In this document: piece by piece, positions 13,345-51,922 of the stretch
How positions within the stretch are numbered: position 1 is the stretch's first letter
Layout: each line of letters begins with the position of its first letter
Assembly: GCA_023230565.1 (NCBI GenBank)
Contig: JALNXD010000016.1
Coordinates: 973-64,972 of the forward strand
DNA length: 64,000 nucleotides
Direction of reading: 5' to 3'
Source: Syntrophales bacterium
GTDB taxonomy: Bacteria; Desulfobacterota; Syntrophia; Syntrophales; UBA2210
Program-made: the position numbers and the translations under genes
Notes under the pieces: generated by a model
Told to the model about the DNA's origin: nothing
Database searches by the model: none
What the model saw: only the letters and a program-made list of their open reading frames with translations

Positions 13345-13705
13345 TTCTTTTTCTCCTTTTCATAATCGATTCGATGTTGCCCAATATTTTCACTCAGAAT
13401 TTTACTCTATAGCCCTTTTGCCATGATATTGTGCTTGACATGACTGCAAATAGTGGTTTACATTTCCAACACTGCTAGCTCCTATACCATAACAAGTGGT
13501 TAAAAGACGAGCAGGATTTTTTTTTGGAATGCTGGTAACACGATTTAATAATAAGTAATATGATTTTGCAAAAAAATGAGGAAGATCTTTTACCAAGTTT
13601 CTCTTTAAATTAACCATATATAAGTCTGATTAGTAGTCTGCTTGAAAGAAGTACTGTTGCGCGCCGGTAGCACGAATAACTAAATCTTATTACGGAGGAT
13701 GTGCG

Positions 13706-15898
13706 ATGAAATGTTTCAATTTTGGGATTTGTGTTACGGCTTTATTGATTTATTCTTTCATTATGCCGGGCCTTGCTGAAGCAGTACAGGAAAAGCCTTC
13801 TGCGGTGCTCGAAGAGGTGGTGGTCACGGCGTCGAAGACGGTGCAGGTGTCCGATGAAGCACCGGGAAGTGTTGAGATTATCACTTCAAAAGAATTGGAA
13901 GCACGCAATATCAAAACAGTGGATCAGGCCCTGGCTGATGTAGCCGGCGCCTTCCAAAAGCGGAACAAGGGAATAATGGATTCAACAAGTTCCATCTACA
14001 TGCGCGGGTTTAACGGAGATCAATATACGCTGATCCTTCTCGACGGTCAGCCCCTCAACGATGCCTATACCGGCGGTCTTGAATGGGGGGCTCTGCCGGT
14101 AAGCAATATAGAGCGAATCGAAGTTGTGAAAGGTGCGGCATCGGCCCTTTACGGTGGTAATGCCATGGGAGGAGTCGTGAACATCATCACGAAAACGCCG
14201 GAAAAGCGTGAGGCACGCATAAGTGCCGGTTATGGATCCCACAATGCAAAACGGCTCCGCCTTCATGCGGGAGATCGTTTCAATGATGCCCTGAGCCTTC
14301 GTATCGGATACGAGGTCGAGTCGACGGACGGGTACGGAACGACGCCCGTCGTCAGGACGATCTCTGCCGGAGCAGGAACGATCGCGGGAGGATACGGTAT
14401 GGTGGATAAATACGGAAATGCAACAAAGTGGGTTGTCGGTGACAAGGGGAAAAACGGTGCCGAAAGAAGCAGTATCGACGCAAAGATGTCTTACGATTAC
14501 TCCGATTCAGGGAATCTCGCCTTTGGCTTTGTAAAGGGACGCCATGAGTATGACTACGAGCATCCTGATTCATACATGGGAACCTTCACGGGATCAGCTA
14601 TTGCCGGAACAAATCTTAAAGCCTCCTTCAGTCCCAACAATTTCATTGATTATACCGGTATCGGCCGCAATGATACGGAGGTATACACCCTTTCCTTCAA
14701 AGAGCTTTTCGGTGAGTGGCAGGTGGATGCACAAATCGGGATGGTGCTCACGGATGACCGTTATACCACCGAATCAGGGGGGGCTGCCGCCACCTACGAC
14801 GATTCGCCCGGCAGTCTGAAAATAACCGAAACAAGAACGTTATTTTCGGAAATTCGCACCTCCGTTCCCCTCGGACTGTTCCATATACTCACTCTCGGTG
14901 CATCCTTTCGCACCGACGAATCGGATACTGATGATTATAACGTTCCGTTTTATCGCAGTTTTGAGGGACGAAGCGGAAGCACCTTCTACTCCGGCGGCGA
15001 GGACCGGATCGGTGCCATATTTGTGCAGGACGAGTGGCACATTGCAGAACCGTTTACGGTGTTTTTGGGTGGGCGCTTCGATACCTGGGAGGTGACCGAT
15101 GGAGCGTCGGGAGTGCCCGGTGCCGAAACGCGATACGAAAGTACGGACGATTCCCATTTCAGTCCCAAAATTGCCGCAGTGTGGAAGGCTTTTGAGAATA
15201 CGACTGTACGTGCGTCGGTGGGGCATGCCTTCCGTCCTCCCACACTATATGAACTGTACCGTACGTGGACGTCCTGGGGAACGACCTATCAGAGTAATCC
15301 AGAGCTGAAACCGGAAAAAGTATGGGCCTATGAAATAGGGGTAACCCGGTATTTTTTTAACAGGAAAACCAGACTTGCGCTCACCGGATATCGTAACGAC
15401 ACGGAAGATTTAATATATTACCAGGTGAACGGCGCCACCAGGAAGAGAATGAACGCCGGAGAAGCGAGGACCTACGGCCTGGAATTCGAGGCATCCCAGA
15501 GGCTCACGGATATATTTACGATTTGGGGAAACTACACCTTTACGAATGCAAAGATAATAGAGAACCCTACTGATCCCGCAAGCGAAGGGAAGCGTGTGAC
15601 GGGAATACCCCGTACGACGGTGCGGATAGGTGTCGATGCGGCACACAAATGGTTCGAAGGGAGTCTGATCGGGCGGTATGCCGGCAAGGTATTCAACGAT
15701 TCGGATAACGGAGATACGGCGGAAGGGGTGTACAGTACCTATGAATCCTATGTGGCGGTGGACGGTAAGATTACGTTCAAACCTCTCAAATGGATGGATC
15801 TCTCCTTTTCGGTGGACAATATATTCGATGAGGAATACTACCTGTACTACAAAGGTGACGGCCGTACCTATTTTGTTGAGATGACGTTTAAATACTAA
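13706..15898 (+). CDS. TonB-dependent outer-membrane receptor
   Basis: Signal peptide, then a TonB-box/plug region (EEVVVTASK, RIEVVKGAASALYGGNAMGGVVNIIT). The C-terminal barrel ends in an aromatic residue (TFKY). Confidence 0.9.
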   Translation: MKCFNFGICVTALLIYSFIMPGLAEAVQEKPSAVLEEVVVTASKTVQVSDEAPGSVEIITSKELEARNIKTVDQALADVAGAFQKRNKGIMDSTSSIYMRGFNGDQYTLILLDGQPLNDAYTGGLEWGALPVSNIERIEVVKGAASALYGGNAMGGVVNIITKTPEKREARISAGYGSHNAKRLRLHAGDRFNDALSLRIGYEVESTDGYGTTPVVRTISAGAGTIAGGYGMVDKYGNATKWVVGDKGKNGAERSSIDAKMSYDYSDSGNLAFGFVKGRHEYDYEHPDSYMGTFTGSAIAGTNLKASFSPNNFIDYTGIGRNDTEVYTLSFKELFGEWQVDAQIGMVLTDDRYTTESGGAAATYDDSPGSLKITETRTLFSEIRTSVPLGLFHILTLGASFRTDESDTDDYNVPFYRSFEGRSGSTFYSGGEDRIGAIFVQDEWHIAEPFTVFLGGRFDTWEVTDGASGVPGAETRYESTDDSHFSPKIAAVWKAFENTTVRASVGHAFRPPTLYELYRTWTSWGTTYQSNPELKPEKVWAYEIGVTRYFFNRKTRLALTGYRNDTEDLIYYQVNGATRKRMNAGEARTYGLEFEASQRLTDIFTIWGNYTFTNAKIIENPTDPASEGKRVTGIPRTTVRIGVDAAHKWFEGSLIGRYAGKVFNDSDNGDTAEGVYSTYESYVAVDGKITFKPLKWMDLSFSVDNIFDEEYYLYYKGDGRTYFVEMTFKY

Positions 15899-15916
15899 TG
15901 ATCGCATGGAGATTTC

Positions 15917-16975
15917 ATGTATCGCAATGTAGGAAGGTTAATAGCGGTTTTACTTTTTCTGTTCTTCGCAGGAGGGGTTGCGCAGGATCTGTTGGCCAAT
16001 GATAATGTGCCGGCACACACCGTTGTCGTGACCGATGCCCGAGGAAGATCGGTGCACGTTCCCCTGCCGGTGGCGCGCCTTGTCCTTTTAAATTCCGATG
16101 CCCTGGAAGTAGTCAGTGCTTTGGGTGCCATGAACATGGTGGCAGGTGTGCCGCAAACAGTCGCTGAAGATCCGTTCTGGAAAAACAGGGTTGGAGAAAT
16201 GCAGGCCGTCGGCCGCTGGAATGAACCGAATTATGAGGTCATTGCCACCCTGAGTCCTTCGGCCGTGATTGCCTACGCTCATCAACCCGGAGACGAATTG
16301 GAACGGAAAATGGCCTCGTTCGGCATTACTGTGGTGAGGCTCGATTTCTATAGAATTAGCACCTTGAAAAGGGAAGTTGAGACACTGGGCCGTATTCTTG
16401 AGCGAGAAGAGGCAGCTTCCCGACTTGTTGAATGGTACCGGCGCGCGGAACTTTCAATTGTAGAGAGAGTGCGGGACTGCCCGGTGCGGCCCAGTGTCTA
16501 CATCGAAAGTTATTCTGATTATCATACGGCCGGACCGGGCTCAGGGGCACACGAAATGTGCATCCTCGCGGGCGGCCGTAATATTGCGGAAAATTTTACT
16601 ATCCCCTATTCCGAAATTACCGGCGAATGGGTTCTTTCGCAACAGCCGGATGTGATTGTCAAAGCGGCCAATATTATCGGAGGGAAACTGTCTGATACCT
16701 CCAGGCGGCTCAGTGAACTTCGGAACAGAATTACACAGCGACCTGCATGGGAGCGTCTTCGTGCCGTTCGCCAGGACCGTGTATATGTGATGGCAAACGA
16801 CATCTGGACGGGCCCCCGTGCAATTATCGGAGTCGCTCATATGGCGGCATGGATGTATCCTGAGCGTTTTCGGGGGAATGATCCTGAAGAGCTCCACCGG
16901 CGTTATTGCAAGGACTTTCAGGGCGTGATCTACGAAGGGTGCTGCGTCTATCCCATACCGGGAGGAGTGCGATAG
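15917..16975 (+). CDS. ABC-transporter periplasmic binding protein, BtuF/FecB (cluster A, class 8) family
   Basis: Signal peptide. Pattern VVVTDARGRSVHVP..RLV and the position directly before the FecCD permease. Confidence 0.8.
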   Translation: MYRNVGRLIAVLLFLFFAGGVAQDLLANDNVPAHTVVVTDARGRSVHVPLPVARLVLLNSDALEVVSALGAMNMVAGVPQTVAEDPFWKNRVGEMQAVGRWNEPNYEVIATLSPSAVIAYAHQPGDELERKMASFGITVVRLDFYRISTLKREVETLGRILEREEAASRLVEWYRRAELSIVERVRDCPVRPSVYIESYSDYHTAGPGSGAHEMCILAGGRNIAENFTIPYSEITGEWVLSQQPDVIVKAANIIGGKLSDTSRRLSELRNRITQRPAWERLRAVRQDRVYVMANDIWTGPRAIIGVAHMAAWMYPERFRGNDPEELHRRYCKDFQGVIYEGCCVYPIPGGVR

Positions 16976-18009
16976 TGGCTGGTGAAACAGGAACCCTTAT
17001 CCGTCGCTACAGGCGTCTGAATGCCCGAAAGCTTTTCGTCCTGGTGGCTCTTTTTGCAATAATGATCGGCTTTGCCCTTGTGGGGCTTACTCAGGGATCC
17101 GCCAATCTGGGGTGGAAAGGGGCAATTGAATCGCTGTGGCGTAACACCGGCGATGCCCATGCCATTATATGGAATCTGAGGCTTCCCCGGATTGCAATGG
17201 CTGTAGTGGCCGGGTGGGGACTGGCCTTGGCAGGAACAGTGTTTCAGGCGATCCTTCGGAATCCCCTGGCATCTCCTTATACACTTGGCATTGCGTCAAG
17301 CGCCGGATTCGGGGCCGTAGCGGCCATCGTAACCGGCACGGGATTCTATAATGAATACGTAATTGCTGGAAATGCATTTCTCTGTGCCCTTTTTTCATCT
17401 TTTTTGATTCTGGGAGTCGCCCGCATGAAAGGGTCCACCACGGAAACGCTCGTTCTTGCGGGAATTGCAATCATGTTTCTTTTTTCTTCACTCAGCTCTC
17501 TTTTCCAGTACATGGGGACGAAAGAGGAAGTGCATGCAATAGTGTTCTGGTTTTTCGGAAGTCTCTCCAAGGTGGGGTGGAAAGAAATCGGAATGGCATC
17601 GGCCATGGTGTTTGTGCCATGCCCGTTTATTTACAGGATGTCCCTTGACTTCAATCTTCTGGCCGTCGATGATGAATCTGCAGTGTCGATGGGGGTCAAT
17701 ATCGGGAAAACGCGGATTGTGGCGCTTGTGCTTGCGTCACTGATTACTGCGGGGGCCATTTGCTTTATTGGTGTAATCGGCTTTATCGGTCTCGTATCGC
17801 CTCATATTGCCAGGATGATCGTCGGGGGCGATCACCGATATCTGTTTCCGACAGCCGCGCTGCTTGGATCGTCACTGGTGCTGGCTGCCGATACAGTGGG
17901 AAGGACTCTATGGGCGCCTCAGGTGATTCCCATCGGTATTGTCACCTCCTTCATCGGAGTGCCTTTTTTGTTCTACCTGCTGATGAGACGCAGAAAGGAG
18001 TACTGGTAA
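16975..18009 (+). CDS. FecCD/BtuC-family ABC permease
   Basis: The sequence has multiple TM segments, IWNLRLPRI, and a C-terminal GIVTSFIGVPFFLYLL-type motif. The start is either GTG at 16975 (overlapping the upstream TAG, GGAGG 9 nt upstream) or ATG at 16906. Confidence 0.8.
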   Translation: MAGETGTLIRRYRRLNARKLFVLVALFAIMIGFALVGLTQGSANLGWKGAIESLWRNTGDAHAIIWNLRLPRIAMAVVAGWGLALAGTVFQAILRNPLASPYTLGIASSAGFGAVAAIVTGTGFYNEYVIAGNAFLCALFSSFLILGVARMKGSTTETLVLAGIAIMFLFSSLSSLFQYMGTKEEVHAIVFWFFGSLSKVGWKEIGMASAMVFVPCPFIYRMSLDFNLLAVDDESAVSMGVNIGKTRIVALVLASLITAGAICFIGVIGFIGLVSPHIARMIVGGDHRYLFPTAALLGSSLVLAADTVGRTLWAPQVIPIGIVTSFIGVPFLFYLLMRRRKEYW

Positions 18010-18797
18010 TGCTCGTAATTAGAAGCCTTGGCACCTTCTATCGCAAGAGGCGGATTTTGATCGACATCGACATGGATCTTAAGACAGGCGAGGTCTTGAG
18101 TCTTGTCGGGCCGAACGGTGCGGGGAAAACAACCCTGTTGAAATGTTGTGTCGGTATACTGACACCCGGGGAGGGGACAATATGTATAGATGATCAGGAT
18201 GTGACCTGCCTTAATGGAAATACCCGGGCACGCCGTATCGGATATATGCCTCAGAGTTCGCCCTCTCGATTTCCCATGACCGTATTCGACACCGTTCTGA
18301 TGGGACGGCGATCCCACATGGCATGGAATCCATCGCGGCACGATCTCGAAATAGTTGAAACACTCATTAATGCAATGAATATTAACCATATTGCTTTCAG
18401 GAATTTTGATCATCTCAGCGGAGGGGAACAACAGAAGGTGTTGCTGGCACGGGCCTTTGCACAGGAGGCTGCCTATATTCTTCTGGATGAGCCTACAAGC
18501 AATTTGGACCTGAAGCATCAATTTGAACTTATGGATATGGTTGCCCGTATGGCGGCCACTGAATCAAGGGGGGTTATGGTGGCGATGCACGATCTTAATC
18601 TGGCCTCGCGCTATTCCCACCGGATCGCTATGCTCAGCGGGGGCCGCATCTGTTTCGTCGGTACCCCCTTTGAGGTCTTAACGCCGGACATAATAAAAGA
18701 CGTATATGGCGTGACGGTCACTGTAACACGTGTCAACGGCCATCCATATATTATGCCTTCAACACATATAATTACGGATAGGCGGAGCAATACATGA
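18009..18797 (+). CDS. ABC-transporter ATPase (FecE/BtuD-like)
   Basis: Walker A GPNGAGKTT, signature LSGGEQQ, Walker B ILLDEPT. The ATG overlaps the permease stop (TAATG). The track ORF 17760.. is an out-of-gene N-terminal extension. Confidence 0.85.
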   Translation: MLVIRSLGTFYRKRRILIDIDMDLKTGEVLSLVGPNGAGKTTLLKCCVGILTPGEGTICIDDQDVTCLNGNTRARRIGYMPQSSPSRFPMTVFDTVLMGRRSHMAWNPSRHDLEIVETLINAMNINHIAFRNFDHLSGGEQQKVLLARAFAQEAAYILLDEPTSNLDLKHQFELMDMVARMAATESRGVMVAMHDLNLASRYSHRIAMLSGGRICFVGTPFEVLTPDIIKDVYGVTVTVTRVNGHPYIMPSTHIITDRRSNT

Positions 18798-21700
18798 AAG
18801 ACAGAGAACCGATAATAGAAGAATTTCCTTGGATCGGATTGTATCATAATAGCTCGGATCGGGTGTTCTGTGATATCGATGAATATCGGGCCTGGCATGA
18901 AGCGCACATATGCCGGAGAGGTGATTCCGGATACAAAGGTATTGTGGGCATTTTTTTCCCCCATTCCCTGCTGGTGAAGAAGGATCTGAAACTTATTGAC
19001 AGCCTCATCGGTGCACTGGAGGAGAGAATGATCCTCCCCGTTCCCCTCTTCGCAAAGCGGAAAGAATATGCAGGTCCCGATGTTCCCGATGCCGCCGAGG
19101 CGCTCGCAGGATTTCGCGGCGTCGATTTAATTATCAATTGTGAATCATCCTTCCTGTTGCAGAAAGACCCCGAAAAGGCAGCGAACGGCACTATTCTGGA
19201 GACGCTGAATGTTCCTGTCGTGCAGACCGTATACTCAAGCGGAAGGACCGAGGAAGAGTGGCGCAGCCATCCCCAGGGGATACAGGCGTCGGGGCAGATA
19301 TACTGGGTGGCGCAGCCTGAGTTCAACGGGGTGATCGAACCGGTGGTGACCAGCGCACGGGATACGGAACGCGACGATCCCTACGGGTTCCGCAAACCCA
19401 TTGCCGAACGGATCGAGTATCTTATGAAGCGCGTTGATGCATGGCTCAAATTGGGCAGATTGCCCGCTCGGCAAAGGAGAGTGACGTTTCTCCTCCACAA
19501 GAATCCCTGCGCCGGATCAGAGGCCGCCGTTGCCGGCGGCGCAGGACTGGATACGCTGGAAAGTGTGGTACGTATCATGCGCCGGATGAGAGAGGAGGGG
19601 TATGATGTCAGGGACTGTCCCGAAAACGGAGAGGCGCTTGTCCGTATGATCATGGAGCGCAAAGCTCTTTGCGAATTCCGCTGGACCACCGTTGATGAGA
19701 TTGTGACGAAAGGGGGCGCCGTCGATCTGATAGATCCGGACCGCTACCTTGGGTGGCTCGATGAGCTGCCGCCGGATGCCCGGAAAAAGGTCATAGATGC
19801 CTGGGGCGAACCGCCGGGCGAGGCGATGGTACACAAGGGCATGCTTGTCGTTACGGGGGTGAGGTTTGGAAAGATACATGTCCTTGTAGAGCCGAAACGC
19901 GGGTGCTACGGTGCCCGATGTGACGGAAAAGTGTGCAAGATTCTTCATGATCCGACGATTGCTCCCACGCACCATTGCCTTGCCACCTATGCCTGGGCGA
20001 GGGAAAATTCCGACGTGATGGTTTCGATGGGAACCCATGGATATATCGAATTCCTGCCGGGCAAGGGCGTTGGCCTTTCCGGATCCTGTTTTCCCGAAAT
20101 TATTGTGGGGGCCATACCGCATCTTTATCTCTATACGGTGAAAAACTGTTCCGAGGGGATCATCGCGAAACGAAGGGCCTACGCAACGCTTGTCGATCAT
20201 CTTGGCCCGACTGTGGAACCCTCGGGGCTCTCCGACGAAATGGAGGAACTGGACGACTTGTTGACACAGTGTGCACGGGCCGATGATTTCGATGAAGAAC
20301 ACAGAAAAGATGTACTTGTGGAAGAAATTCGCACCATCGCGGAACGGGCGAATCTTGTCGAGAAGGGGAGGGATATTTCTTCGGATGAGATGGTTTCAGT
20401 GCTCCATGAGAAACTGAATCTGTTCCGGGAGACACAGATCGGTGCAGGATTGCATGTGTTCGGGCAGGCACCCGATGAGGATCGGATCGCCCACATGCTC
20501 GTTTCGATAATGCGCTTCGATTCGGACAGGCCCTCCATACGAAGATTGATCCTGGAGATAATGGGATATCGGTACGATTACATCATCGATCATCAGGAAT
20601 CACTGATAGACGGTATGACCGGAGGCCAACATCTGGACCGTGCCACAGACTATGCGCTTGAACTGGTACCGCGGGTATTGAGAGAGGTGGAAAGGATTCG
20701 GGATCATATTGCCGATATCATTCCGGTGCGTAATCCAGGGCCCATCGATTCCCTGGTGGAATTACTTACATGGGCGATTCGGGATGTGGTGCCGAAACTT
20801 GCCATGACAGGCGGAGAAATTTCCCAGCTGCTTCGCGGCATGGATGCGCACTATATACAGCCGGGCGCCTCAGGTCTGATCACGAGGGGAAAAATCGATG
20901 TGCTGCCCACGGGCAGGAATTTCTACAGTGTCGATACCAGGGCGATTCCCACACGCGCCGCCTGGGCTGTGGGTATGAAAATGGCGCACAACCTCCTCCA
21001 TAGGTATCTCCATGAGGAGGGGCGATATCCGGAAAATCTCGGCATGGTGCTCTGGGCCGTCGATGCCTTCCGGGCCGACGGCGAGCAGATTGCACAGATA
21101 TTGTATCTTATGGGCGCAAGACCGGTGTGGTCCGAGGCGGGGCAGGTTATGGGAACCGAACCGATTCCGCTGAAGGAGCTGGGACGGCCCCGTATCGACG
21201 TAACGATTCGTACCAGCGGCATATTCAGAGACAATCTTTCCCATTTGATCGAACTGATCGATCGCGCTGTGAATGCCCTTGCCTCGCTGAATGAAAGGGA
21301 AGAATATAACTACATAAGAAAACATGTGAATGCCTACCGCGTCAGCAGAAAGGACGGGGAAAGCGAGGATGAGAAGACCCGGCGGGCCACATACCGTATA
21401 TTCTGCAGCCAGCCCGGGGCATACGGCGGAGGGGGTATAAACTACATGATAGCATCCAGCGCCTGGGAAACCACTGAAGATCTGGGAGAACACCACATCG
21501 AGCATGGCGGTTACGCCTATGGCGAAGGAACATGGGGGCGCATTTCACGGGGAGAATATGCCGATCGATTGAGCACCGTCGATGCAACGTACAATAAATT
21601 ATCCTCCGATGAATCCGACCCGCTCGACTGCTGCTGCTTCTATGATTTTCAAGGGGGAATGACCGCCGCGGTCAAGACAGTTGCCCATCGTGATCCCAAA

Positions 21701-22174
21701 GTGTACTGGGGAGATACCCGCGATCCTCACCGGCCGGAGACACGCCACATGAAAGACGAGATGGAAAGGGTTGCAAGAACGAAACTCCTGAACCCTCATT
21801 GGATTGAGCATATGAAAGGGCACGGGTACAGGGGGGCCGGTGACATTGCGAAAAGGGTCGGGCGCGTCTATGGATGGGATGCCTCGGCGGAAGTTGTATC
21901 GGACTGGATCTTTGACGACATTGCCAGGACCTTTGTGCTTGATAGGGAGAACAGAAAATTTTTTGAGGACCACAATCCCTGGGCGCTGGAGGAGATGACT
22001 CGGAGGCTGCTCGAAGCGGAATCCAGGGGTATGTGGAAGGCTGATACCGATGTGCTGGAAAAACTGAGAGACCGTTACCTTGAAATAGAGGGGTGGATGG
22101 AGGAGTCCATGGGAGATACGGATGGCGACTTCCAGGGCGGATCTGTCGACGTGATCACGAAACGGCATTTGTAA
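18794..22174 (+). CDS. cobN: CobN-like large subunit of a class I (ATP-dependent) metal chelatase
   Basis: 1,126 aa with the CobN/ChlH hallmark MGTHGYIEFLPGKG. The start overlaps the ATPase stop (ATGA). Confidence 0.85.
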   Translation: MKDREPIIEEFPWIGLYHNSSDRVFCDIDEYRAWHEAHICRRGDSGYKGIVGIFFPHSLLVKKDLKLIDSLIGALEERMILPVPLFAKRKEYAGPDVPDAAEALAGFRGVDLIINCESSFLLQKDPEKAANGTILETLNVPVVQTVYSSGRTEEEWRSHPQGIQASGQIYWVAQPEFNGVIEPVVTSARDTERDDPYGFRKPIAERIEYLMKRVDAWLKLGRLPARQRRVTFLLHKNPCAGSEAAVAGGAGLDTLESVVRIMRRMREEGYDVRDCPENGEALVRMIMERKALCEFRWTTVDEIVTKGGAVDLIDPDRYLGWLDELPPDARKKVIDAWGEPPGEAMVHKGMLVVTGVRFGKIHVLVEPKRGCYGARCDGKVCKILHDPTIAPTHHCLATYAWARENSDVMVSMGTHGYIEFLPGKGVGLSGSCFPEIIVGAIPHLYLYTVKNCSEGIIAKRRAYATLVDHLGPTVEPSGLSDEMEELDDLLTQCARADDFDEEHRKDVLVEEIRTIAERANLVEKGRDISSDEMVSVLHEKLNLFRETQIGAGLHVFGQAPDEDRIAHMLVSIMRFDSDRPSIRRLILEIMGYRYDYIIDHQESLIDGMTGGQHLDRATDYALELVPRVLREVERIRDHIADIIPVRNPGPIDSLVELLTWAIRDVVPKLAMTGGEISQLLRGMDAHYIQPGASGLITRGKIDVLPTGRNFYSVDTRAIPTRAAWAVGMKMAHNLLHRYLHEEGRYPENLGMVLWAVDAFRADGEQIAQILYLMGARPVWSEAGQVMGTEPIPLKELGRPRIDVTIRTSGIFRDNLSHLIELIDRAVNALASLNEREEYNYIRKHVNAYRVSRKDGESEDEKTRRATYRIFCSQPGAYGGGGINYMIASSAWETTEDLGEHHIEHGGYAYGEGTWGRISRGEYADRLSTVDATYNKLSSDESDPLDCCCFYDFQGGMTAAVKTVAHRDPKVYWGDTRDPHRPETRHMKDEMERVARTKLLNPHWIEHMKGHGYRGAGDIAKRVGRVYGWDASAEVVSDWIFDDIARTFVLDRENRKFFEDHNPWALEEMTRRLLEAESRGMWKADTDVLEKLRDRYLEIEGWMEESMGDTDGDFQGGSVDVITKRHL

Positions 22175-22192
22175 CGGCGCAATGGTGTATGT

Positions 22193-23185
22193 ATGAACGA
22201 ACTTGGGGCGGTGGGGAGCATCATTGTGCAGAGTATGGCGGACACGGGGAACGTGGCCTGTCCGGTCCTGATTGTTATGTTTCTGTCCCTGTACTGTTCT
22301 CAGGTATTGATTGAACTGGGACTGCTGAAGCGGTTTGAATTTCTCGGCAGGCCCTTTGTACGCTGTGCCCGCTTGCCCCATGAAGCTGCTGTTGCCTTTC
22401 TTGCCTCCTTCGGTACGGTACTTGCCGGTAATGCCGTTACGGCGAAGCTTTATCAGGAAAAAGTTCTCAGTCGCCGGGAGACTGTGCGGTCAGCGCTCCT
22501 GAACACCACACCTGTCTATCTGAAGGAGTCTCTGACCCATCAAATTCCCGTCATGATGCCGCTCTTGGGTCTGAAAGTGGGACTCCTCTATTTGGGGATG
22601 TTTCTTGCCACGGGGATCGTAAAAATCATGATCGTGATTTTATCAGGGACAGGGATGGGCGCAAGGCCGGATTCTCAGGCGGCACAACTGTGTGAAGAGC
22701 GAAAAGACGCCGGAGAGAGGATGAAGGTGCGGCTGCCTCGCATACTGAGGAATTCTTTTACGAAACAGGCTCGCATATTTTTACGAGTCGGAAGCATATT
22801 TATCGTTATGACATTTTGCGTATTTATGCTTGTCAACAGTGGATGTGTCGCGTCCATTTCGGGTTATGTAAGGCCTTTGACGGCATTTCTGAATCTTCCC
22901 TCGTCGGTAGTAATCCCGGTAGGAACCTATATGTTCAGTGCCGTTGCAGGAGCATCATCCATCGGTGCGATGCTCAGCGACGGTGTTCTGAATCCCCTGC
23001 AGGGATTCGCGGCATGCATTCTGGGAAGTTTTCTCATGCTTCCCCTTTTTGCACTGAGATACTCACTCCCGCGGTATGCATCCCTATTCGGATTTTCTTT
23101 GGGAACGAAGATACTGTTTATCTCCACAGGGATCGGTATGAGTACCCGGGTGATATTTTTGTTGGGAGTGATCCGGTTTCTCTAA
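22193..23185 (+). CDS. Polytopic membrane protein, possibly nucleoside-recognition (Gate/FeoB-C-like) domain
   Basis: About 8 hydrophobic segments. The N-terminal pattern resembles Gate domains. The function is not established from sequence alone. Confidence 0.5.
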   Translation: MNELGAVGSIIVQSMADTGNVACPVLIVMFLSLYCSQVLIELGLLKRFEFLGRPFVRCARLPHEAAVAFLASFGTVLAGNAVTAKLYQEKVLSRRETVRSALLNTTPVYLKESLTHQIPVMMPLLGLKVGLLYLGMFLATGIVKIMIVILSGTGMGARPDSQAAQLCEERKDAGERMKVRLPRILRNSFTKQARIFLRVGSIFIVMTFCVFMLVNSGCVASISGYVRPLTAFLNLPSSVVIPVGTYMFSAVAGASSIGAMLSDGVLNPLQGFAACILGSFLMLPLFALRYSLPRYASLFGFSLGTKILFISTGIGMSTRVIFLLGVIRFL

Positions 23186-23251
23186 AGGTACGGAATGCGT
23201 GCCGTCAAGGAGCCAGGATGATGAATCGCTTTTATTTGAAAATTATATTGG

Positions 23252-24349
23252 ATGAGGATTGTGCCTATGAACACACAACAACGTGCCTATCCCTTTACCG
23301 CGATCGTGGGACAGGACAGGATGAAGAAAGCCCTGATTTTGAATGCCATCAACCCTAAGCTGGGGGGAGTGCTTATCCGCGGTGAAAAGGGGACGGCCAA
23401 ATCGACGGCCGTGAGGTCGCTTGCGGTCCTGCTGCCCGGTCTCGATGCCATTGCCGAGTGTCCTTTCGGGTGTGATCCGGCAAGAGAAAAACGGATGTGT
23501 CAGGAATGTCTCGACCGGCTGGCGCGGGGAGAGGAATATAGTGTCCATACACGAAAAACGCGGCTTGTCGAATTGCCAGTGGGGGCCACGGAAGACCGGG
23601 TCATCGGCACTCTCGATCTGGAGCATGCCATAAAGAAGGGTGAGAAAAAGTTCGAACCGGGTCTTCTCGCCGCGGCCCATAGGGGGATTCTCTATGTGGA
23701 CGAAATTAATCTTCTTGACGATCATATTGTGGATGTGCTGCTTGACTCCGCCGCCATGGGGGTCAATTCCGTTGAACGGGAAGGGATGTCCTATGTCCAT
23801 CCTGCCGAGTTTATCCTGATTGGCACCATGAATCCGGAGGAGGGCGAACTTAGGCCGCAACTTCTCGATCGTTTCGGTCTCTGCGTACACATCGAGGGAA
23901 TCGCCGATTTGGAGAAGCGTGTGGAAGTTGTCCGAAGAAGAGCGGCCTACGAGCACGATCCAATGGAATTTTACCGCCTCTGGGAGGCGGAGGAGCGGGC
24001 ACTAAGAGAGCGGATAGTGTATGCGCGGGACATACTGGAGAAAGTGACGGTTTCAGATGAGATGCTGTACCTTATTGCCCAAATTGCCATAGACATGCAT
24101 GTCGACGGTCATCGGGCGGATATCGTAATGATGAAGGCAACCCAGACACTGGCGGCGCTGCACGGTCGCGGACAGGTCTGTGAGGACGATGTGCGTGAGG
24201 CTGCGGAAATGGCCCTTCATCACCGCATGCGGAGGAAACCGTTCCAGAAACCCGGCGCCGATGAAGAAAAAATTGCAGGGATTGTTTCGCACTCTCACTA
24301 TCACGCACATGAATACGTCAATGCACATGATCATCATCATAAATATTAA
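23252..24349 (+). CDS. ChlI/BchI-like AAA+ chelatase subunit with His-rich C-terminal tail
   Basis: [40 protein letters not shown], Walker [11 protein letters not shown]. The tail is [19 protein letters not shown]. The start could be the ATG at 23267, which has GAGGA upstream. Confidence 0.85.
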
Positions 24350-24415
24350 TCACCAAAATTATCTTCCTGTGAAAGGAGAGTGTCGGCAAAAAGATGAGGC
24401 AAAAAGAGTACAGTA

Positions 24416-26431
24416 ATGACGACGGCGACGTGGCATAAAAAGGATTTCTATCCCTTTACAGCAATCGTCGGCCAGGAGACGATGATAAAGGCGCTGATAC
24501 TGAGCGGAATTGCTCCTTCAATCGGCGGTCTTCTTATCCGTGGCGAAAAGGGAACGGCAAAATCGACGGCGGTACGGGCACTGGCGGCAGTTTTGCCGGA
24601 AATTGAAGTTGTCGCAGGGTGTGCCTTCAACTGCAATCCCGCCGCTCCCGAACATTTCTGCCCTGATTGTGCATTGAAAGCGAAAAGCGGCATCCCCCTC
24701 GATGTGGTCAAACGGCCAATTCCTTTTGTCACATTGCCTCTTGGCGCTACGGAAGACAGGGTGATAGGAAGTCTCGATATGACCAGAGCGGTGAGAGAAG
24801 GTGGGCGATGGTTCGAGCCGGGGCTTCTTGCGGCGGTGCATCGGGGGATTCTTTATGTGGATGAAGCGAATTTGCTGGATGATTCCCTGGTCGATATTAT
24901 CCTTGATTCGGCAGCTTCAGGAATAAATGTAGTGGAGCGGGAGGGTATTTCTTTCCGGCACCGGTGTGAATTCATCCTCGTCGGAACCATGAATCCGGAA
25001 GAGGGCGAACTCAGGCCCCAGTTGCTCGACCGGTTCGGCATGTGTGTTGCCGTTGAAGGCATAAGGGACCCTGACCTGCGCGTTCAGGTGATGATGCTGA
25101 AAGGAAGCTACGACAAGGACAGTCAAAACTTTGTCGCTGATTACCGGGACCGTCAGGCGGAACTTGCCGGACGGATGGATCATGCCCGGACAAGGCTCGG
25201 TCACGTTACAATCTCCGATGAAGCGGTGATGCGTTGTGCCGAACTTGCCGCCGAGGCATCCGTGGCCGGCCACCGGGCAGATGTGGCAATGGCGGAGACA
25301 GCCAGGAGTATTGCCGCCTATCGGGGTGCATCTGTTGCAACCGAAGACGATGTGAGGGAAGCTGCGGAATATGTACTTTTTCATCGTCGAAGAGAAGCGC
25401 CGCCGCATCAGGCTGAAGCGAATGATAGGGAACTGGACTGCAATGATCGATCCGATAAAAATGATAGACGGGCAAATGAACAAAGGAGTGAATCCCGCGA
25501 TCGAAACCCTTCAGGAGGGCATGGCATGCCGGATCCTGATCGCAGTGTGTTACCGGAATTCGGTTCTGAGACGAACAGCGGGGAGACAATTTTTGCAACA
25601 GGAGACCCTTTTCCCCTCTCTCTGATTCCACAAAAAAAAGATCGGATTCTCCGAAGAGGATCGGGCAGAAGGACGGTTACGCGCACCCCGTCGAAAGCGG
25701 GAAGATACGTGTTCAGCTCCATGGAGCGAAAGACTGATGATCTGGCCTTCGATGCAACCCTGCGAGCGGCGGCGCCCCATCAATCTGTGAGGGAAAAAAG
25801 GGATGTAGCCATTGCAGTCGAGGGGAGGGACATTAGGGAAAAGCGGCGGGAAAAACGCATAGGAAATTTTATTGTCTTCGTTGTGGATGCCAGCGGCTCC
25901 ATGGGGGCGGCCAAACGCATGATCGAAACAAAGAGTGCGATACTCTCACTGCTCCTTGATGCGTACCAGAAGCGTGACAAGGTGTCCATGATCGCCTTCA
26001 AGGGCAACCGTGCGGAGGTGCTGCTGCCACCTACTAACAGTGTTGAGCGTGCCCACAGACTTTTGGATGAACTTCCCACCGGTGGAAAGACGCCGCTTGC
26101 CGCCGGGATATTTTCCGGATGTCAACTTATTCGAACCCACCTGCGAAAAGATCCGCATGTCGTCCCGCTCCTGATCCTTATATCCGACGGAAAGGCAAAT
26201 GTTGGTATCGGAGGCGGAAATCCTCTTGCAGAGGCCATGGCTGCCGCTGAAGAAATAAAGGACGATGCGCGTATTCGATCCGTCGTTGTGGATGTGGAAA
26301 AAGCGGGACTCATTTCCTTAGGTCTTGCACGAAAACTCTCGCAGTGCATGGGTGCAGCCTATCTTAAAATCGAAGATCTAAAGGCGGATTACCTTTTTGA
26401 TTTTCTCAAGATATTCGTGAAGTCACAATAA
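24416..26431 (+). CDS. ChlD/BchD-like chelatase subunit (AAA+ N-domain, charged linker, C-terminal vWA)
   Basis: The N-terminal half parallels the ChlI-like protein. The linker is rich in D/R/N/E. The vWA MIDAS motif is VFVVDASGSM. Confidence 0.85.
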   Translation: MTTATWHKKDFYPFTAIVGQETMIKALILSGIAPSIGGLLIRGEKGTAKSTAVRALAAVLPEIEVVAGCAFNCNPAAPEHFCPDCALKAKSGIPLDVVKRPIPFVTLPLGATEDRVIGSLDMTRAVREGGRWFEPGLLAAVHRGILYVDEANLLDDSLVDIILDSAASGINVVEREGISFRHRCEFILVGTMNPEEGELRPQLLDRFGMCVAVEGIRDPDLRVQVMMLKGSYDKDSQNFVADYRDRQAELAGRMDHARTRLGHVTISDEAVMRCAELAAEASVAGHRADVAMAETARSIAAYRGASVATEDDVREAAEYVLFHRRREAPPHQAEANDRELDCNDRSDKNDRRANEQRSESRDRNPSGGHGMPDPDRSVLPEFGSETNSGETIFATGDPFPLSLIPQKKDRILRRGSGRRTVTRTPSKAGRYVFSSMERKTDDLAFDATLRAAAPHQSVREKRDVAIAVEGRDIREKRREKRIGNFIVFVVDASGSMGAAKRMIETKSAILSLLLDAYQKRDKVSMIAFKGNRAEVLLPPTNSVERAHRLLDELPTGGKTPLAAGIFSGCQLIRTHLRKDPHVVPLLILISDGKANVGIGGGNPLAEAMAAAEEIKDDARIRSVVVDVEKAGLISLGLARKLSQCMGAAYLKIEDLKADYLFDFLKIFVKSQ

Positions 26432-26634
26432 AGTCTTGATTATTCGTAACAAGCTTCTCATGTAGATGAGCCGGTATTATAATGGAAAGTAAAAGATGCT
26501 GTCGCATCGATTACTCAGAAAACAGGTTTTGTGCTCTTCGCAACATAAATTCGGCAATAGGCCCATAGAAGCAGATTTACTTGACTAAAACAGCGGCGTA
26601 TATTAACACACCAAGAAAAACATTGTGGTTACTT

Positions 26635-27051
26635 ATGTCGGAAATAGTTAGATTTGGAGTTTCTTTAGAGAAAACTCTCCTTGAGAAATTTGATAAACTT
26701 ATTCATAACAGAAAATATACCAATAGATCCGAGGCCCTGCGTGATCTGATAAGGCAGGAATTGTTTAAAAAAGAATGGATGAATGACAGAGAAGTTGCGG
26801 GAGCCGTTACTTTTGTTTACAACCATCACATAAGAGAACTGGCGAACAGAATTATGGATGTCCAGCATGATAATCAGAAAATGATTATTTCCACTCAACA
26901 TATCCATCTTGATCATGAAAATTGTCTCGAAATTGTTGCAGTCCGAGGAAAAGCAAAAGATGTGGAAAAAGTCGCCGATCTGTTGAAGTCAGTAAAAGGA
27001 GTCAAATACGGAACTTTAAGCATGACATGCATAAAAGAGGAAGGCGCGTAA
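26635..27051 (+). CDS. nikR: Nickel-responsive regulator NikR
   Basis: Ribbon-helix-helix N-terminus VRFGVSLEKTLLEKFDKLIHNRKYTNRSEALRDLIR. The C-terminal metal-binding domain has HHIRE...HIHLDHENCLEIV. The track ORF starts at a TTG at 26581. Confidence 0.85.
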   Translation: MSEIVRFGVSLEKTLLEKFDKLIHNRKYTNRSEALRDLIRQELFKKEWMNDREVAGAVTFVYNHHIRELANRIMDVQHDNQKMIISTQHIHLDHENCLEIVAVRGKAKDVEKVADLLKSVKGVKYGTLSMTCIKEEGA

Positions 27052-27195: not shown

Positions 27196-27960
27196 TCAGT
27201 GTACGAGAACAATGGCCATTCCTGCTGATACCCGTTTTGCAAACTGACTTTCGAGATTCAGTTGAAACCCTCTTCCAATGGGGATGTTGAAACCGGCAAA
27301 GCCGCCGATACGAGTCTCGTTTTTCAATGTAGATTCTGGGATATATGGTAATAACGATATTTTTGCTTCGGAATGGTAAAGGTATGCTCCCGTATACACT
27401 TTTATTCCCGATGTGACATGTGCCTGAAGAGCGATTCCTGCATTGACGTCCCACGGATTTTCAATGTAATATTCACTCGTGAATGCAACACCATTAAAGG
27501 TGCCTCTTACGTCGTCGCGATAATCACCGAAACTGTACGTTCCCTGAAGGAAGGCGCCGACCCCGAAGATTTCACTGAGAGGATAATACCCCTTTACACC
27601 CAAAGTTCCAGTAAATTGCCAGTTATCATTAAAATCTTCGCTGGTTTGCAGTTCATCTGATATGCGGGTGACATTTCCGACTTCAAGATCGGCAATTCCG
27701 AAGCGACCATATAATTCAAAATAGCGGGCAAATCCACGACCGAGTTCTGAATAAAATATATTTTGTGTGAAAATCCGTTCCACACCATTTTCGTAGCAAT
27801 CTTTTTTATACGTGTAGCCTATGGCTGTATGAATTCCCCCTTTGGCTTCCGTAAATGGTTCGGGGGGGCCGAAGGGTCCTGCTGCAGGCGCTGTTCCCGG
27901 ATACCGGCAGAGTGAAAGCAGGAGAAACATTGTCATCACTATGAATCGCTTCATGTTCAA
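27196..27960 (-). CDS. Outer-membrane beta-barrel protein (family not resolved)
   Basis: Signal peptide. Alternating aromatic/Gly-rich beta-strand pattern. It is the last gene of the mla operon, 21 nt after mlaA. Confidence 0.5.
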   Translation of the reverse strand: MNMKRFIVMTMFLLLSLCRYPGTAPAAGPFGPPEPFTEAKGGIHTAIGYTYKKDCYENGVERIFTQNIFYSELGRGFARYFELYGRFGIADLEVGNVTRISDELQTSEDFNDNWQFTGTLGVKGYYPLSEIFGVGAFLQGTYSFGDYRDDVRGTFNGVAFTSEYYIENPWDVNAGIALQAHVTSGIKVYTGAYLYHSEAKISLLPYIPESTLKNETRIGGFAGFNIPIGRGFQLNLESQFAKRVSAGMAIVLVH

Positions 27961-36300: not shown

Positions 36301-36527
36301 ATCTTGACACCTTGTTCACAATTTGCCATATTCATGCATATTTTTCACTTTCCTTTTAAGAGAAATTTTTCTTTCCTCTGAAGACATTTTCCTCCAACTG
36401 TCTTCAGTAAACTATATTCACACAATTAGAAAGGATAAATCCTGCCGGCTGGCTATTAAAAGGGTTGAACATCTGCTTCGTGCCCCTGAAATTGCTGTTT
36501 GAAGAAAAAAAGGAGAAATCTGCCAGT

Positions 36528-49027: not shown

Positions 49028-50149
49028 TTGAACGATGTGAAAATGAAGGATCTTGAAAAGACTGAGAAGGTAATTCAGGAATTAATTTTTGACATTACCC
49101 GTGAGAATTTTCTCTCTGATATATCTTCGTATGATAATCGTGACCTTTTAAAACTTGACGGGATACTCTTTTTTGCCTGTGCTGATGCTGTTATAAGACT
49201 TCTTGGGATTAACCCCGAGATTTCCGACATGTGGATTGTACTGGATGAAGCCGCTCTATTTGCAAAGGAATTGACACCGGAAAGAATCGCAAAATTATAT
49301 TTACAAACCGGCGATGAAATCGCCGTTGTTGAACTGATTTACCATCGGGTGAATAGGCATCGGACTCAAGAGGAAGTATTGCGTAGAGTAACTCATCTAA
49401 AATATGGAGGAAATAGACTGTTTAATTTTATAGCTCTTACTAATCAAGACAATCTTGACAAGCTTCTTCGAGAGTACGGGTCGTGTGTAAAAGCTTTTCG
49501 ACATAATTGTGGCATAGGTAGCTCCAGTTTGGATAATGCTCTAAGAGGCAAATATTTTAAAGGAGCAGACGATATTAAAGGAAAGGCTCTTGTTGCGCTG
49601 TATGAGTCTCTTAATGAGTTGAAAGAAAATGTTAAGGTTTCAGAAATAGAAGAACTTGAACCCATCCCACTTTCGCGCTCAGTGAATCAACTTAAATGGG
49701 AAGCGGCTAAAACAGGAATCATGCGTGTGAAACTTGCAGCAACAATTCAAACATACTTGCCGATACTTGAAGGTACGGCAGAAAAGATCCCATTAAAAAT
49801 GCATGATAGGTTTAAGAGTCAGCGAGTAAAAGAGGGAAGAGAAATTCTAGAAAGCGGGGATGTATCTTCTCACGATATTGACAAAATTCTTATAGACGAT
49901 CCCCCCAGACGTTTTAAACGTTCTGGATCGAAGAAAAAGCGGGAAGGTGTTGTTGCGGCGATTGCACTGCAGGAAACCTGCCGAATACTCATTTCTCGAG
50001 CGCGTGATCCGGAAGTAGCAAAGAAGGCAATCACCATGATTGTAAGAGGATATTCAACTGCTGAGATTAGAGCGGAGACAAGGATGAGCGAAAGACAGAT
50101 TCGAGAATATAAAAAACAGCTTAAGGACGTTTCCAGCCTTGATCTGTAA
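49028..50149 (+). CDS. Hypothetical protein with C-terminal HTH-like segment
   Basis: Long ORF with coherent composition. The C-terminus MIVRGYSTAEIRAETRMSERQIREYKKQL looks like a sigma-r4/LuxR-type HTH. The start is uncertain (TTG 49028 or ATG 49043). Confidence 0.5.
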   Translation: MNDVKMKDLEKTEKVIQELIFDITRENFLSDISSYDNRDLLKLDGILFFACADAVIRLLGINPEISDMWIVLDEAALFAKELTPERIAKLYLQTGDEIAVVELIYHRVNRHRTQEEVLRRVTHLKYGGNRLFNFIALTNQDNLDKLLREYGSCVKAFRHNCGIGSSSLDNALRGKYFKGADDIKGKALVALYESLNELKENVKVSEIEELEPIPLSRSVNQLKWEAAKTGIMRVKLAATIQTYLPILEGTAEKIPLKMHDRFKSQRVKEGREILESGDVSSHDIDKILIDDPPRRFKRSGSKKKREGVVAAIALQETCRILISRARDPEVAKKAITMIVRGYSTAEIRAETRMSERQIREYKKQLKDVSSLDL

Positions 50150-51746: not shown

Positions 51747-51922
51747 TTCGCACCTCCATAAATAATGCCTGGTACCCCCTATACGGGCTGAAACTTGAAG
51801 AAACGGCGGTGACAAAAAAATCCATGGCAAAAGATTAACAAACCGAAAAAAACCACCGCCGTTTTTCAGAAGAACTGACCGTATATAGGGCGTAAGCAAA
51901 AATTTAGTAATGGAGGTGACCC

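Follow-up and report, generated by a model that had tools for sequence, protein, structure and literature searches.

We analysed a 64,000-nucleotide (nt) stretch of DNA from a Syntrophales bacterium (contig JALNXD010000016.1 of assembly GCA_023230565.1; the whole stretch is the window below) and found an operon at positions 13706–26431 that joins a TonB-dependent receptor and an ATP-binding cassette (ABC) importer to a class-I chelatase-like set of CobN-like, ChlI-like and ChlD-like genes. These importer and chelatase genes are one conserved functional module across phyla. We tentatively favour the view that the module serves nickel acquisition during nickel starvation, importing a nickel chelate and processing it in the cytoplasm, most likely by demetallation. 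A first-pass annotation made from the sequence alone had described eight co-directional genes, with nikR 203 nt downstream. Pfam and NCBIfam assignments confirmed this order, and the distance from the chlD stop (26431) to the nikR ATG (26635) was as described:

13706–15898, plus strand: TonB-dependent receptor, 730 amino acids; Pfam Plug and TonB_dep_Rec_b-barrel
15917–16975, plus strand: class III periplasmic binding protein, 352 amino acids; Pfam Peripla_BP_2
16975–18009, plus strand: FecCD-family ABC permease, GTG start; Pfam FecCD, 295 bits
18009–18797, plus strand: ABC ATPase, 262 amino acids; assigned by Pfam and NCBIfam
18794–22174, plus strand: CobN-like catalytic subunit, 1,126 amino acids; PF02514, 1136 bits
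22193–23185, plus strand: Gate-family polytopic membrane protein, 330 amino acids; two Pfam Gate stretches
23252–24349, plus strand: ChlI-like AAA+ ATPase, 365 amino acids; His-rich tail at 24287–24346
24416–26431, plus strand: ChlD-like AAA+ plus vWA subunit, 671 amino acids; assigned by Pfam and NCBIfam
26635–27051, plus strand: nikR, 138 amino acids; RHH_1 and NikR_C, NF003381

Three consecutive junctions overlap. The binding-protein and permease genes share 1 nt at 16975 (TAG/GTG), with a GGGAGGAG ribosome site just 5' of it, and the short GTG start of the permease is backed by the gene call in a close relative (L001). The permease and ATPase genes meet in TAATG at 18009, and the ATPase and CobN-like genes overlap in ATGA (18794–18797). 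The non-overlapping junctions among the eight genes have gaps of 18, 18, 66 and 66 nt. The single translational unit proposed earlier for importer and chelatase therefore held from the binding protein to the CobN-like protein and not for the other operon genes, which are only closely spaced. The eight-gene cluster has a G+C content of 0.526, compared with 0.45–0.47 in its flanks, 0.375 in nikR and 0.349 in the leader.

The module recurs in five phyla

A profile built from the short clade of CobN-like proteins, run against a single genome for each species, returned 33 loci, onto which we mapped the proteins of the window. The same gene set in the same order was present in more than 20 independent loci from five phyla (Desulfobacterota, Elusimicrobiota, Hydrogenedentota, Desantisbacteria and Caldiserica), a recurrence which argues that the cluster is more than a chance assembly. 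The CobN-like protein of the window has a 100% identical counterpart in a Syntrophales metagenome-assembled genome, where it is annotated as cobaltochelatase subunit CobN. An 88%-identical relative (L001 and L108) contained all eight genes in the same order without nikR, and Desulfobacteraceae Eth-SRB2 (L002), at 67% identity, contained the same eight genes. The recurrent core comprises the receptor, binding protein, permease, ATPase, CobN-like protein and ChlD, and most loci also have ChlI and the Gate gene. In the group at 49–58% identity, the Gate gene lies 5' of the CobN-like gene, and some loci are without the Gate gene or a separate ChlI.

All-against-all clustering of flanking open reading frames (ORFs) revealed ExbB and ExbD as the sole other recurrent families (in L109, from Elusimicrobiota, ExbB, ExbD and TonB all follow the cluster) and no recurring cob or cbi genes around the related loci. 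Similarly, Pfam detected no cobalamin, haem or chlorophyll genes and no cob or cbi genes among the remaining large ORFs of the window. These results agree with the first-pass annotation, which had seen no other tetrapyrrole genes in the window, and support its proposal of a dedicated importer–chelatase module distinct from an ordinary B12, haem or chlorophyll biosynthesis cluster. Transposase genes stand beside the cluster in several related loci. Together with the G+C contrast in the window, they make the module look self-contained and mobile, which suggests that the eight genes move horizontally.

Two loci showed additional features. An expanded version at L037:1–23402, on a 2.86-Mb contig, contains a receptor, ChlD, ChlI, a second receptor, a binding protein, a permease, an ATPase and a short CobN-like gene, followed by an ABC-2 exporter pair, 1,012- and 341-amino-acid Peripla_BP_2 proteins and a second, long CobN paralogue. 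In L013 (Desantisbacteria), a group II intron (RF02003 and RF00029; 15853–17713) lies immediately 3' of the ChlD-like gene.

A cysteine-rich CobN-like subunit

We classified the CobN-like protein by its scores against curated models and PDB entries and by motif columns in 151 representatives. PF02514 covers residues 9–1086, and GTHGYIEFLPGKG is present. The protein falls below every curated CobN, BchH and ChlH cutoff, with 1267 bits against a cutoff of 1468 for NF004646, 788 against 822 for TIGR02257 and 729 against 829 for TIGR02025 (BchH/ChlH). Its nearest match is CobN of Mycobacterium tuberculosis (7c6o; phmmer 521 bits, template-modelling (TM) score 0.84), followed by ChlH (434 bits, TM 0.81) and HmuS (386 bits, TM 0.81). 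In an AlphaFold2 (AF2) model (predicted local distance difference test (pLDDT) 88, predicted TM score (pTM) 0.90), the body fold of domains III–VI is present. The N-terminal head domain (domain I) is missing: the alignment begins at NF004646 position 137 of 1277, at about residue 200 of 7c6o, and long-form relatives keep about 135 extra N-terminal residues that the window protein lacks. The N terminus of the window protein, MKDREPIIEEFPWIG, contains no hydrophobic segment, and its gene overlaps that of the cytoplasmic ATPase. Three motifs lie in the CobN-like gene:

19898–19954, plus strand: RGC-YGAR-C-DGKV-C-KIL-H
20030–20053, plus strand: GTHGYIEF, which holds H415
21608–21646, plus strand: DESDPLDCCCFYD

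The superfamily-invariant histidine of the HFG(T/A)HG motif, as defined in PMC12583661, is kept as H415 and is invariant in 70 homologues. The acidic residues E419 and E454 are also kept and align with ChlH E660 and E625. A Cys-x4-Cys-x4-Cys-x3-His insertion at residues 371–385 (the CCCH insertion) has no counterpart in ChlH, CobN or HmuS; in the AF2 model, the C371/C376/C381/H385 loop has a low pLDDT of about 58. In the domain V loop, the second metal-facing residue stands in LSLDHxxE in HmuS (His1209), in DVSHYFD in ChlH (His1174) and in EHD...DSDD in canonical CobN; the window protein has ESD...DCCCFYD, with Cys946–948. The CCCH insertion and the Cys-Cys-Cys loop are both invariant in the 70 homologues, which include Firmicutes and Methanothrix forms of 1,270–1,330 amino acids. 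The same columns divided the 151 representatives into three groups: CCCH/CC(C) around the window protein, canonical CobN with H..DSDDQ and a HmuS type with YDLDHE. Thiolate ligands favour a soft metal (Ni, Co, Zn or Fe) and disfavour Mg. The annotation 'cobaltochelatase subunit CobN' is probably wrong for this CCCH/CCC subfamily.

Secretion of the long-form relatives was ruled out, as they have no signal peptide. Their neighbours encode class III binding proteins, FecCD permeases, ABC-2 exporters and MotA/ExbB-like proteins, not cbi products. In Thermoanaerobacter kivui (L105:9156–23882) and Ammonifex degensii (L107:10001–23882), a long-form Cys-rich CobN occurs with binding proteins fused to Cu_amine_oxidN1, a second, short CobN C-terminal paralogue (385–446 amino acids), MotA_ExbB plus DUF2149, and ABC-2 exporter genes; the T. 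kivui locus additionally has ChlI and a stand-alone vWA protein. A NikR-like palindrome, GTGTTAT-N13-ATAACAT, is located 100 nt 5' of the long-form CobN cluster of T. kivui, a genetically tractable organism.

NikR-like sites in the operon leaders

The leader before the receptor gene measures 361 nt and is A+T-rich. At gathering score, Rfam matched no family anywhere in the window, and no cobalamin riboswitch was found in the window leader even at E ≤ 10, in line with the earlier failure to find a B12-box there. A cobalamin riboswitch was likewise absent from 13 related loci at the Rfam gathering score, and three leaders were also negative in E-value mode.

By contrast with these Rfam results for cobalamin, NikR-like sites were enriched. 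We scanned leaders from several phyla with the delta-proteobacterial NikR signal, GTGTTAC-N13/14-GTAACAC or its reversed form (Rodionov et al. 2004, PMC545781). Against a background of the other 691 kb of locus sequence, 18 leaders totalling 6.3 kb gave 4 sites with at most two mismatches where 0.055 were expected (Poisson P = 4e-7) and 14 sites with at most three where 0.43 were expected (Poisson P = 5e-17); these P values are somewhat optimistic because the leaders are A+T-rich. A perfect GTGTTAC-N13-GTAACAC box lies 40 nt 5' of the receptor gene in L026 (Caldiserica), with a chance expectation of about 0.01 sites in the 651 kb scanned, as estimated under a uniform-base model. The 88%-identical relative has a one-mismatch box at −101, and L013 (Desantisbacteria) and L109 (Elusimicrobiota) have the two-mismatch site GTATTAT-N14-GTAACAC in common. 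The best Fur-box matches in the 18 leaders, scanned with the classical consensus only, were no better than those in shuffles. Candidate sites in the window were as follows:

13535–13561, plus strand: candidate NikR half-site pair 1, GTAACAC-N13-GTAATAT, three mismatches; overlaps promoter-like hexamers at 13524–13564
13667–13693, plus strand: candidate NikR half-site pair 2, GTAGCAC-N13-TTATTAC, three mismatches; 39 nt 5' of the receptor start
26603–26632, plus strand: possible NikR autoregulatory site, TTAACAC-N16-TGGTTAC, just 5' of nikR; speculative, with off-consensus spacing

The probability of at least two three-mismatch sites in the 361-nt leader was 0.0007 in dinucleotide shuffles. The half-site GTAGCACGA of pair 2 occurs at the same distance (−40) in L001 and is also present in the L014 leader. 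A promoter-like site precedes nikR at 26576–26604. Matches to the NikR box at 50861–50920 and 51165–51193 were rejected as false; they are caused by iteron-like GTAAC(A/G)C direct repeats with a period of about 10 nt inside a Prim-Pol/DnaB-like gene (50121–51899, minus strand).

The NikR protein of the window scored 184 bits against NF003381 (cutoff 105) and contains the RHH_1 and NikR_C domains. It carries nickel-site residues in VQH and QHIHLDHENC, with an H-x-H-x5-C pattern, which we take to fit the H76/H87/H89/C95 pattern of Escherichia coli NikR. A tblastn search for NikR across loci L001–L035 found it in the window alone. In L109, which was added later, nikR lies directly 5' of the receptor gene on the same strand, a second, independent adjacency in another phylum and at another position.

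Motor, importer, receptor and Gate proteins

The ChlI-like and ChlD-like proteins matched TIGR02030 and TIGR02442, VWA_2 and AAA_lid_2, with all scores just under the equivalog cutoffs (ChlD-like, 774 bits against 779 for TIGR02442, 'putative cobaltochelatase'). Both contain GEKGTAKST, and the vWA domain of ChlD contains a MIDAS-type DASGS. HxH-rich ChlI tails comparable to that of the window were found in ten related loci; to our knowledge, canonical ChlI has no such His-rich tail.

The importer parts (Peripla_BP_2, FecCD and ATPase) and the Plug/barrel receptor form a Type II set of the BtuCD/FecCD type. Among NCBIfam models, none for a specific substrate reached its cutoff for the importer or the receptor, and PDB matches were split over siderophore, haem, B12 and nickel proteins. 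The receptor, which heads the cluster in relatives, scored under the cutoffs of all specific NCBIfam receptor models, and its plug weakly resembles that of the pseudopaline receptor CntO. The best solved relatives of the binding protein are siderophore, haem and B12 binders, and the nickel-binding CeuE/NiuB of Helicobacter pylori is a weak match; for the top PDB entries in this ligand comparison, 9hrj and 9ht5, we found no literature. The best NCBIfam match of the ATPase is a haem ABC ATPase (233.7 bits, cutoff 261). Judged from their sequences, the binding protein and receptor indicate a bulky chelate, not which one.

The Gate-protein family comprises 66 clusters, all named hypothetical. The protein had no PDB match by sequence or profile, and a Foldseek search returned weak similarity to CNT/TRAP elevator transporters; Gate domains also occur in the metal permease FeoB. 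The first-pass annotation had suggested that this membrane protein tethers the chelatase to the importer. This idea found no support: the gene stands 5' or 3' of the CobN-like gene or is missing in relatives, and the protein is more plausibly a transporter.

Relation to known systems

By sequence and fold, the module is closest to CobN systems (CobNST, 7c6o and 9uk9, or archaeal-type CobN plus ChlID), which are likewise ATP-driven and have three components, with an AAA+ subunit and an AAA+/vWA subunit. The window protein differs from CobN in its sub-cutoff scores, the replaced EHD...DSDD motif and the missing N-terminal domain, and the operon differs from CobN loci in having no B12 riboswitch and no cob or cbi neighbours, in being joined to a receptor and importer and in the NikR operators of its relatives' leaders. 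Mg-chelatase (ChlH/BchH–ChlI–ChlD) shares the ChlI/ChlD-type partners and the two acidic residues. In place of ChlH His1174, the window protein has Cys, although the Asp1177 position is kept (DVSHYFD versus DCCCFYD); furthermore, the host is a non-phototroph without chlorophyll genes, and the thiolate-rich site is unsuited to Mg2+.

HmuS/BtuS (hmuYRSTUV; PDB 9d26, PMC12583661) belongs to the same PF02514 superfamily and has the same body fold as the window protein; it is likewise encoded beside a TonB-dependent receptor in an uptake operon, and the GTHG histidine is common to both. HmuS is a periplasmic, membrane-anchored, NADH-dependent protein of 1,469 amino acids without a ChlI/ChlD motor, with a head/neck haem site (Met79/His254), a Met-rich insertion and LSLDHxxEFMGG (Asp1208, His1209 and Glu1212). 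By contrast, the window protein is head-less, reads PLDCCCFYDFQGG at the LSLDHxxEFMGG columns and has the CCCH insertion; it is putatively cytoplasmic, together with ChlI and ChlD, and would act after an inner-membrane ABC importer in a putatively nickel-regulated context, as opposed to the haem and iron context of HmuS.

For the uptake half, the FrpB4/NiuBDE system of H. pylori also combines a TonB-dependent receptor, a class III binding protein, a FecCD permease and an ATPase, and its control by NikR corresponds to the control proposed for the module; it has no chelatase-like genes, and the similarity of its binding protein to that of the window is marginal. CobN1 of Methanothermobacter marburgensis (PMC12350162) is a CobN homologue of an anaerobe that is co-produced with NikR1 and putative transporters when nickel is scarce. 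That system is archaeal and has no outer-membrane receptor, and the parallel drawn here is to its expression. Thus, as far as sequence comparison goes, the module looks like a hybrid of a NikR-controlled, TonB/FecCD-type nickel uptake half and a class-I chelatase or dechelatase half.

A third CobN type, BtuS, was flagged in 2003 for metalloporphyrin salvage, as cited in PMC6460266, and within the part of this literature available to us, CobN homologues of strict anaerobes and methanogens have been without a function since. In the HmuS study, most clusters of the superfamily were unassignable (PMC12583661). Full-text literature, at incomplete coverage, yielded no description of the Cys-rich subfamily, the His-tailed motor or the putatively NikR-controlled importer operon.

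A model for nickel acquisition

In the model that we tentatively favour, low nickel would cause NikR to release the operon, and the receptor, class III binding protein and FecCD-type ABC importer would carry a bulky metal chelate to the cytoplasm. There, the chelate would be received by a class-I chelatase-like machine, composed of the head-less, Cys-rich CobN-like subunit and the ChlI/ChlD AAA+ motor, which would act on its metal, most likely extracting nickel as HmuS extracts iron from haem. The metal would then pass to the His-rich tail of ChlI and on to nickel enzymes, and the Gate-family protein may export or recycle the emptied ligand. We infer that the metal is nickel, that the substrate is macrocyclic (tetrapyrrole-like) and is demetallated, and that the His tail and the Gate protein have these roles. 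The very high kinetic inertness of nickel macrocycles would account for the requirement for an ATP-driven motor. Of the possible metals, nickel is the strongest candidate on account of NikR operators or nikR adjacency in several phyla, the thiolate motifs, the ChlI His tail and the induction of a methanogen CobN, in agreement with the first-pass preference for Ni or Co over Mg. Removal of the metal is favoured because the operon has the layout of an acquisition system and would be repressed by a nickel sensor, because its hosts are not known as makers of nickel tetrapyrroles, because no biosynthetic genes go with the module and because HmuS shows that the fold can work in reverse (PMC12583661).

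Two published results provide precedents. The CobN/ChlH homologue HmuS has been proven to dechelate haem (EMBO J 2025, PMC12583661); the earlier remark that CobN-like salvage enzymes had no biochemical proof is thus outdated, and the window protein lacks the features that define HmuS. In M. marburgensis, the CobN homologue, NikR1 and putative transporters reach high levels only when nickel is limiting (Nature 2025, PMC12350162).

Several points weigh against the nickel-acquisition model. The Cys motifs could hold an Fe–S cluster or structural zinc instead of a substrate metal, and neither the binding protein nor the receptor points to a particular ligand. We know of no class-I chelatase with an AAA+ motor that has been shown to run in reverse. 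The HmuS precedent differs, as that enzyme is periplasmic and works without ChlI/ChlD (PMC12583661). A high-affinity enzyme for nickel insertion could likewise be repressed by NikR when nickel is plentiful. The candidate NikR sites of the window are weak, with three mismatches each, and in Desulfobacterales relatives a conserved RNA-like leader occupies the place where NikR boxes would be. In addition, nikR adjacency is rare (2 of about 35 loci, the window and L109), and the position of nikR in the window could be accidental because its G+C content is far lower than that of the operon, suggesting that nikR may be resident rather than co-transferred with the module. Of the gene association seen in the first pass, the receptor, ABC, CobN-like and ChlI/ChlD genes recur, whereas an adjacent nikR is not conserved. 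The nickel link survives because operators were found in relatives, and it is these sites that now mainly carry it.

A more specific version of the model, which we regard as rather unlikely, is an ATP-driven nickel dechelatase that pirates nickel from F430 released by methanogens or methane- and alkane-oxidising archaea, or from other nickel tetrapyrroles, for example the nickel porphyrins found in seeps and tar. The nickel macrocycle would enter through the receptor and ABC importer, the ChlI/ChlD motor would distort it in the Cys-lined cavity of the CobN-like subunit, nickel would go to the His-rich tail and the Gate protein would expel the empty ring. Record titles place many carriers in such habitats, including Syntrophales, Eth-SRB2 (a partner of ethane oxidisers), Desulfobacterales from seeps and from Guaymas, and a carrier from a tar biofilm; their ecology may reflect nickel piracy beside archaea.

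Alternative explanations

The main rival is metal insertion, with a high-affinity, ATP-driven nickel (or cobalt) chelatase loading scarce metal into an imported or endogenous macrocycle; the imported macrocycle would be metal-free or differently metallated, and the Gate protein, whose domains are known from FeoB, would provide the metal ion. Every characterised class-I enzyme driven by ChlI/ChlD or CobS/CobT inserts metal (PMC12583661), a nickel-chelatase role was proposed in 2011 for methanogen CobN homologues (PMC3087415) by the same group that reported the rise of the M. marburgensis homologue at low nickel (PMC12350162), and the catalytic His and Glu of the superfamily are kept, with a His-rich tail that suits metal delivery. 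However, the Syntrophales, Desulfobacterales and Elusimicrobiota hosts are not known for any nickel tetrapyrrole, and tetrapyrrole biosynthesis genes do not go with the module. An ion could be inserted without so close a link to a receptor and an importer that handle bulky chelates, and repression by nickel-bound NikR would be unusual for a biosynthetic step that consumes nickel. We consider insertion unlikely, and the remaining explanations less likely than insertion. One of these, somewhat more doubtful, is that a non-tetrapyrrole nickelophore of the nicotianamine/opine or histidine-complex type is imported and that the chelatase-like complex frees or hands over its metal. H. pylori takes up nickel through FrpB4 and the FecCD-type NiuBDE, with CeuE/NiuB as binding protein. 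The weak PDB match to CeuE/NiuB and the CntO-like receptor plug are in keeping with a nickelophore, as is the Eth-SRB2 module, which adjoins two nicotianamine-synthase-like genes, a pyridoxal phosphate (PLP) enzyme and an ABC ATPase and has a CooT gene upstream. However, such synthase genes are adjacent in L002 and L020 alone, small metallophores usually give up nickel without a 250-kDa ATP-driven machine, and the cavity of the CobN fold, which the AF2 model matches, is built for tetrapyrroles (PMC12583661).

It is improbable that the operon encodes an ordinary cobaltochelatase, in which CobN and ChlI/ChlD insert cobalt, either in B12 synthesis or to salvage corrinoids, while cobalt chelates or corrinoids enter through the importer. 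Archaea presumably pair CobN with ChlID, the catalytic subunit matches CobN best in both NCBIfam and the PDB (NF004646 and 7c6o), the ChlD-like protein comes near the TIGR02442 cutoff, and the Desulfobacterales leader motif described below also precedes a cluster of receptor, DUF4198 and tetrapyrrole methylase genes. Against this, all CobN models stay under their curated cutoffs, the EHD...DSDD ligand motif is swapped for ESD...DCCC, and the leaders bear NikR operators instead of the cobalamin riboswitch that is lacking in the window and the 13 related loci, with no cob or cbi genes nearby. Moreover, in strict-anaerobe hosts the substrate of CobN in the oxygen-dependent route is not expected. 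The most improbable of the explanations considered is anaerobic extraction of iron from haem, a cytoplasmic counterpart of Bacteroidota HmuS that would convert imported haem to iron and protoporphyrin IX. Anaerobic hosts cannot use haem oxygenase, the homologue HmuS has the proven activity, the top NCBIfam match of the ATPase is a haem ATPase (sub-cutoff), and the binding protein weakly resembles ShuT and IsdE. Yet the head domain with Met79/His254, the Met-rich insertion, LSLDHxxEFMGG and the membrane anchor are all absent, and it is NikR operators, not Fur boxes beyond chance, that occur in the leaders.

The module offers a testable setting for these CobN homologues, with a CCCH/Cys-Cys-Cys subfamily, a dedicated importer, a His-tailed motor and a putative nickel regulator. 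If nickel is stripped from an imported chelate, this would be the first ATP-driven dechelatase and a new route of nickel acquisition. In methanogenic and methane-seep communities, whose hydrogenases, CO dehydrogenase and methyl-coenzyme M reductase are limited by nickel, such stripping might also amount to the piracy of a cofactor. If nickel is inserted instead, the enzyme would be the first class-I nickel chelatase.

A conserved leader in Desulfobacterales and other observations

In Desulfobacterales relatives, a conserved, G+C-rich leader of about 125 nt, with GGGAAGGCAGC...GCTGCCTTCCCGGTGAAGCCCCC...ATACCAC...GTCAA, precedes TonB-dependent receptor genes. Copies were located at L002:4552–4680, L003:4227–4352, L010:4735–4860, L019:2347–2480, L053:1108–1240 and L064:186–320 and in about 20 further metagenome loci; a metagenome scan gave about 27 true copies. 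The leader precedes the CobN-type operon in some loci, including L064 (where the module runs through ChlD, at which the locus DNA ends), and unrelated TonB-dependent receptors elsewhere. It had no Rfam match, even in sensitive mode, and RNAalifold on 22 sequences supported one hairpin with slight covariation. Several loci carry, 5' of it, a conserved T-run hairpin together with a GCGCAAT..ATTGCG palindrome. The leader is possibly a riboswitch or attenuator that has yet to be described; its ligand would then inform the question of the substrate. Its sequence may resemble rearranged cobalamin-riboswitch elements. At L086:2813–7876 (minus strand), and in the same way in L076, it stands before an 800-amino-acid receptor, a DUF4198 protein (presumably COG5266, a periplasmic Co/Ni-transport component) and a divergent, frameshift-split tetrapyrrole methylase. 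Beyond the methylase, on the other strand, both loci have a PLP-enzyme gene, and L086 also has a nicotianamine-synthase-like gene like those of Eth-SRB2.

In Eth-SRB2, a PLP enzyme (Ala_racemase_N/D-ser_dehydrat), the two nicotianamine-synthase-like genes and the ABC ATPase lie on the opposite strand after the module (L002:17697–21698), and the CooT nickel-chaperone gene occupies L002:1–176. This arrangement with CooT was seen in this genome alone among the loci surveyed; the PLP, nicotianamine-synthase-like and ABC set could serve metallophore biosynthesis.

Elsewhere in the window, the large ORFs code for branched-chain-type binding proteins, an acyl-CoA ligase, MaoC, an Mla system, an alcohol dehydrogenase, restriction-modification proteins and an integrase/primase island. 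This low-G+C island, at about 45–64 kb, contains the Prim-Pol/DnaB-like gene together with HipA, a phage-type integrase, an IrrE-like peptidase, a helicase/nuclease and type I restriction-modification genes. A 2,072-amino-acid ORF at 36465–42683 has a G+C content of about 0.60, compared with about 0.45 nearby, and an N-terminal CarboxypepD_reg as its sole recognised domain; long antisense ORFs (36582–39113 and 39255–41306) overlap it, and the stretch could be foreign DNA or code for a giant surface protein. Convergent with nikR, at the end of the Mla set, a gene at 27196–27960 (minus strand) encodes a 254-amino-acid protein that matches nothing in Pfam or NCBIfam and seems to have a signal peptide; it may be an outer-membrane protein.

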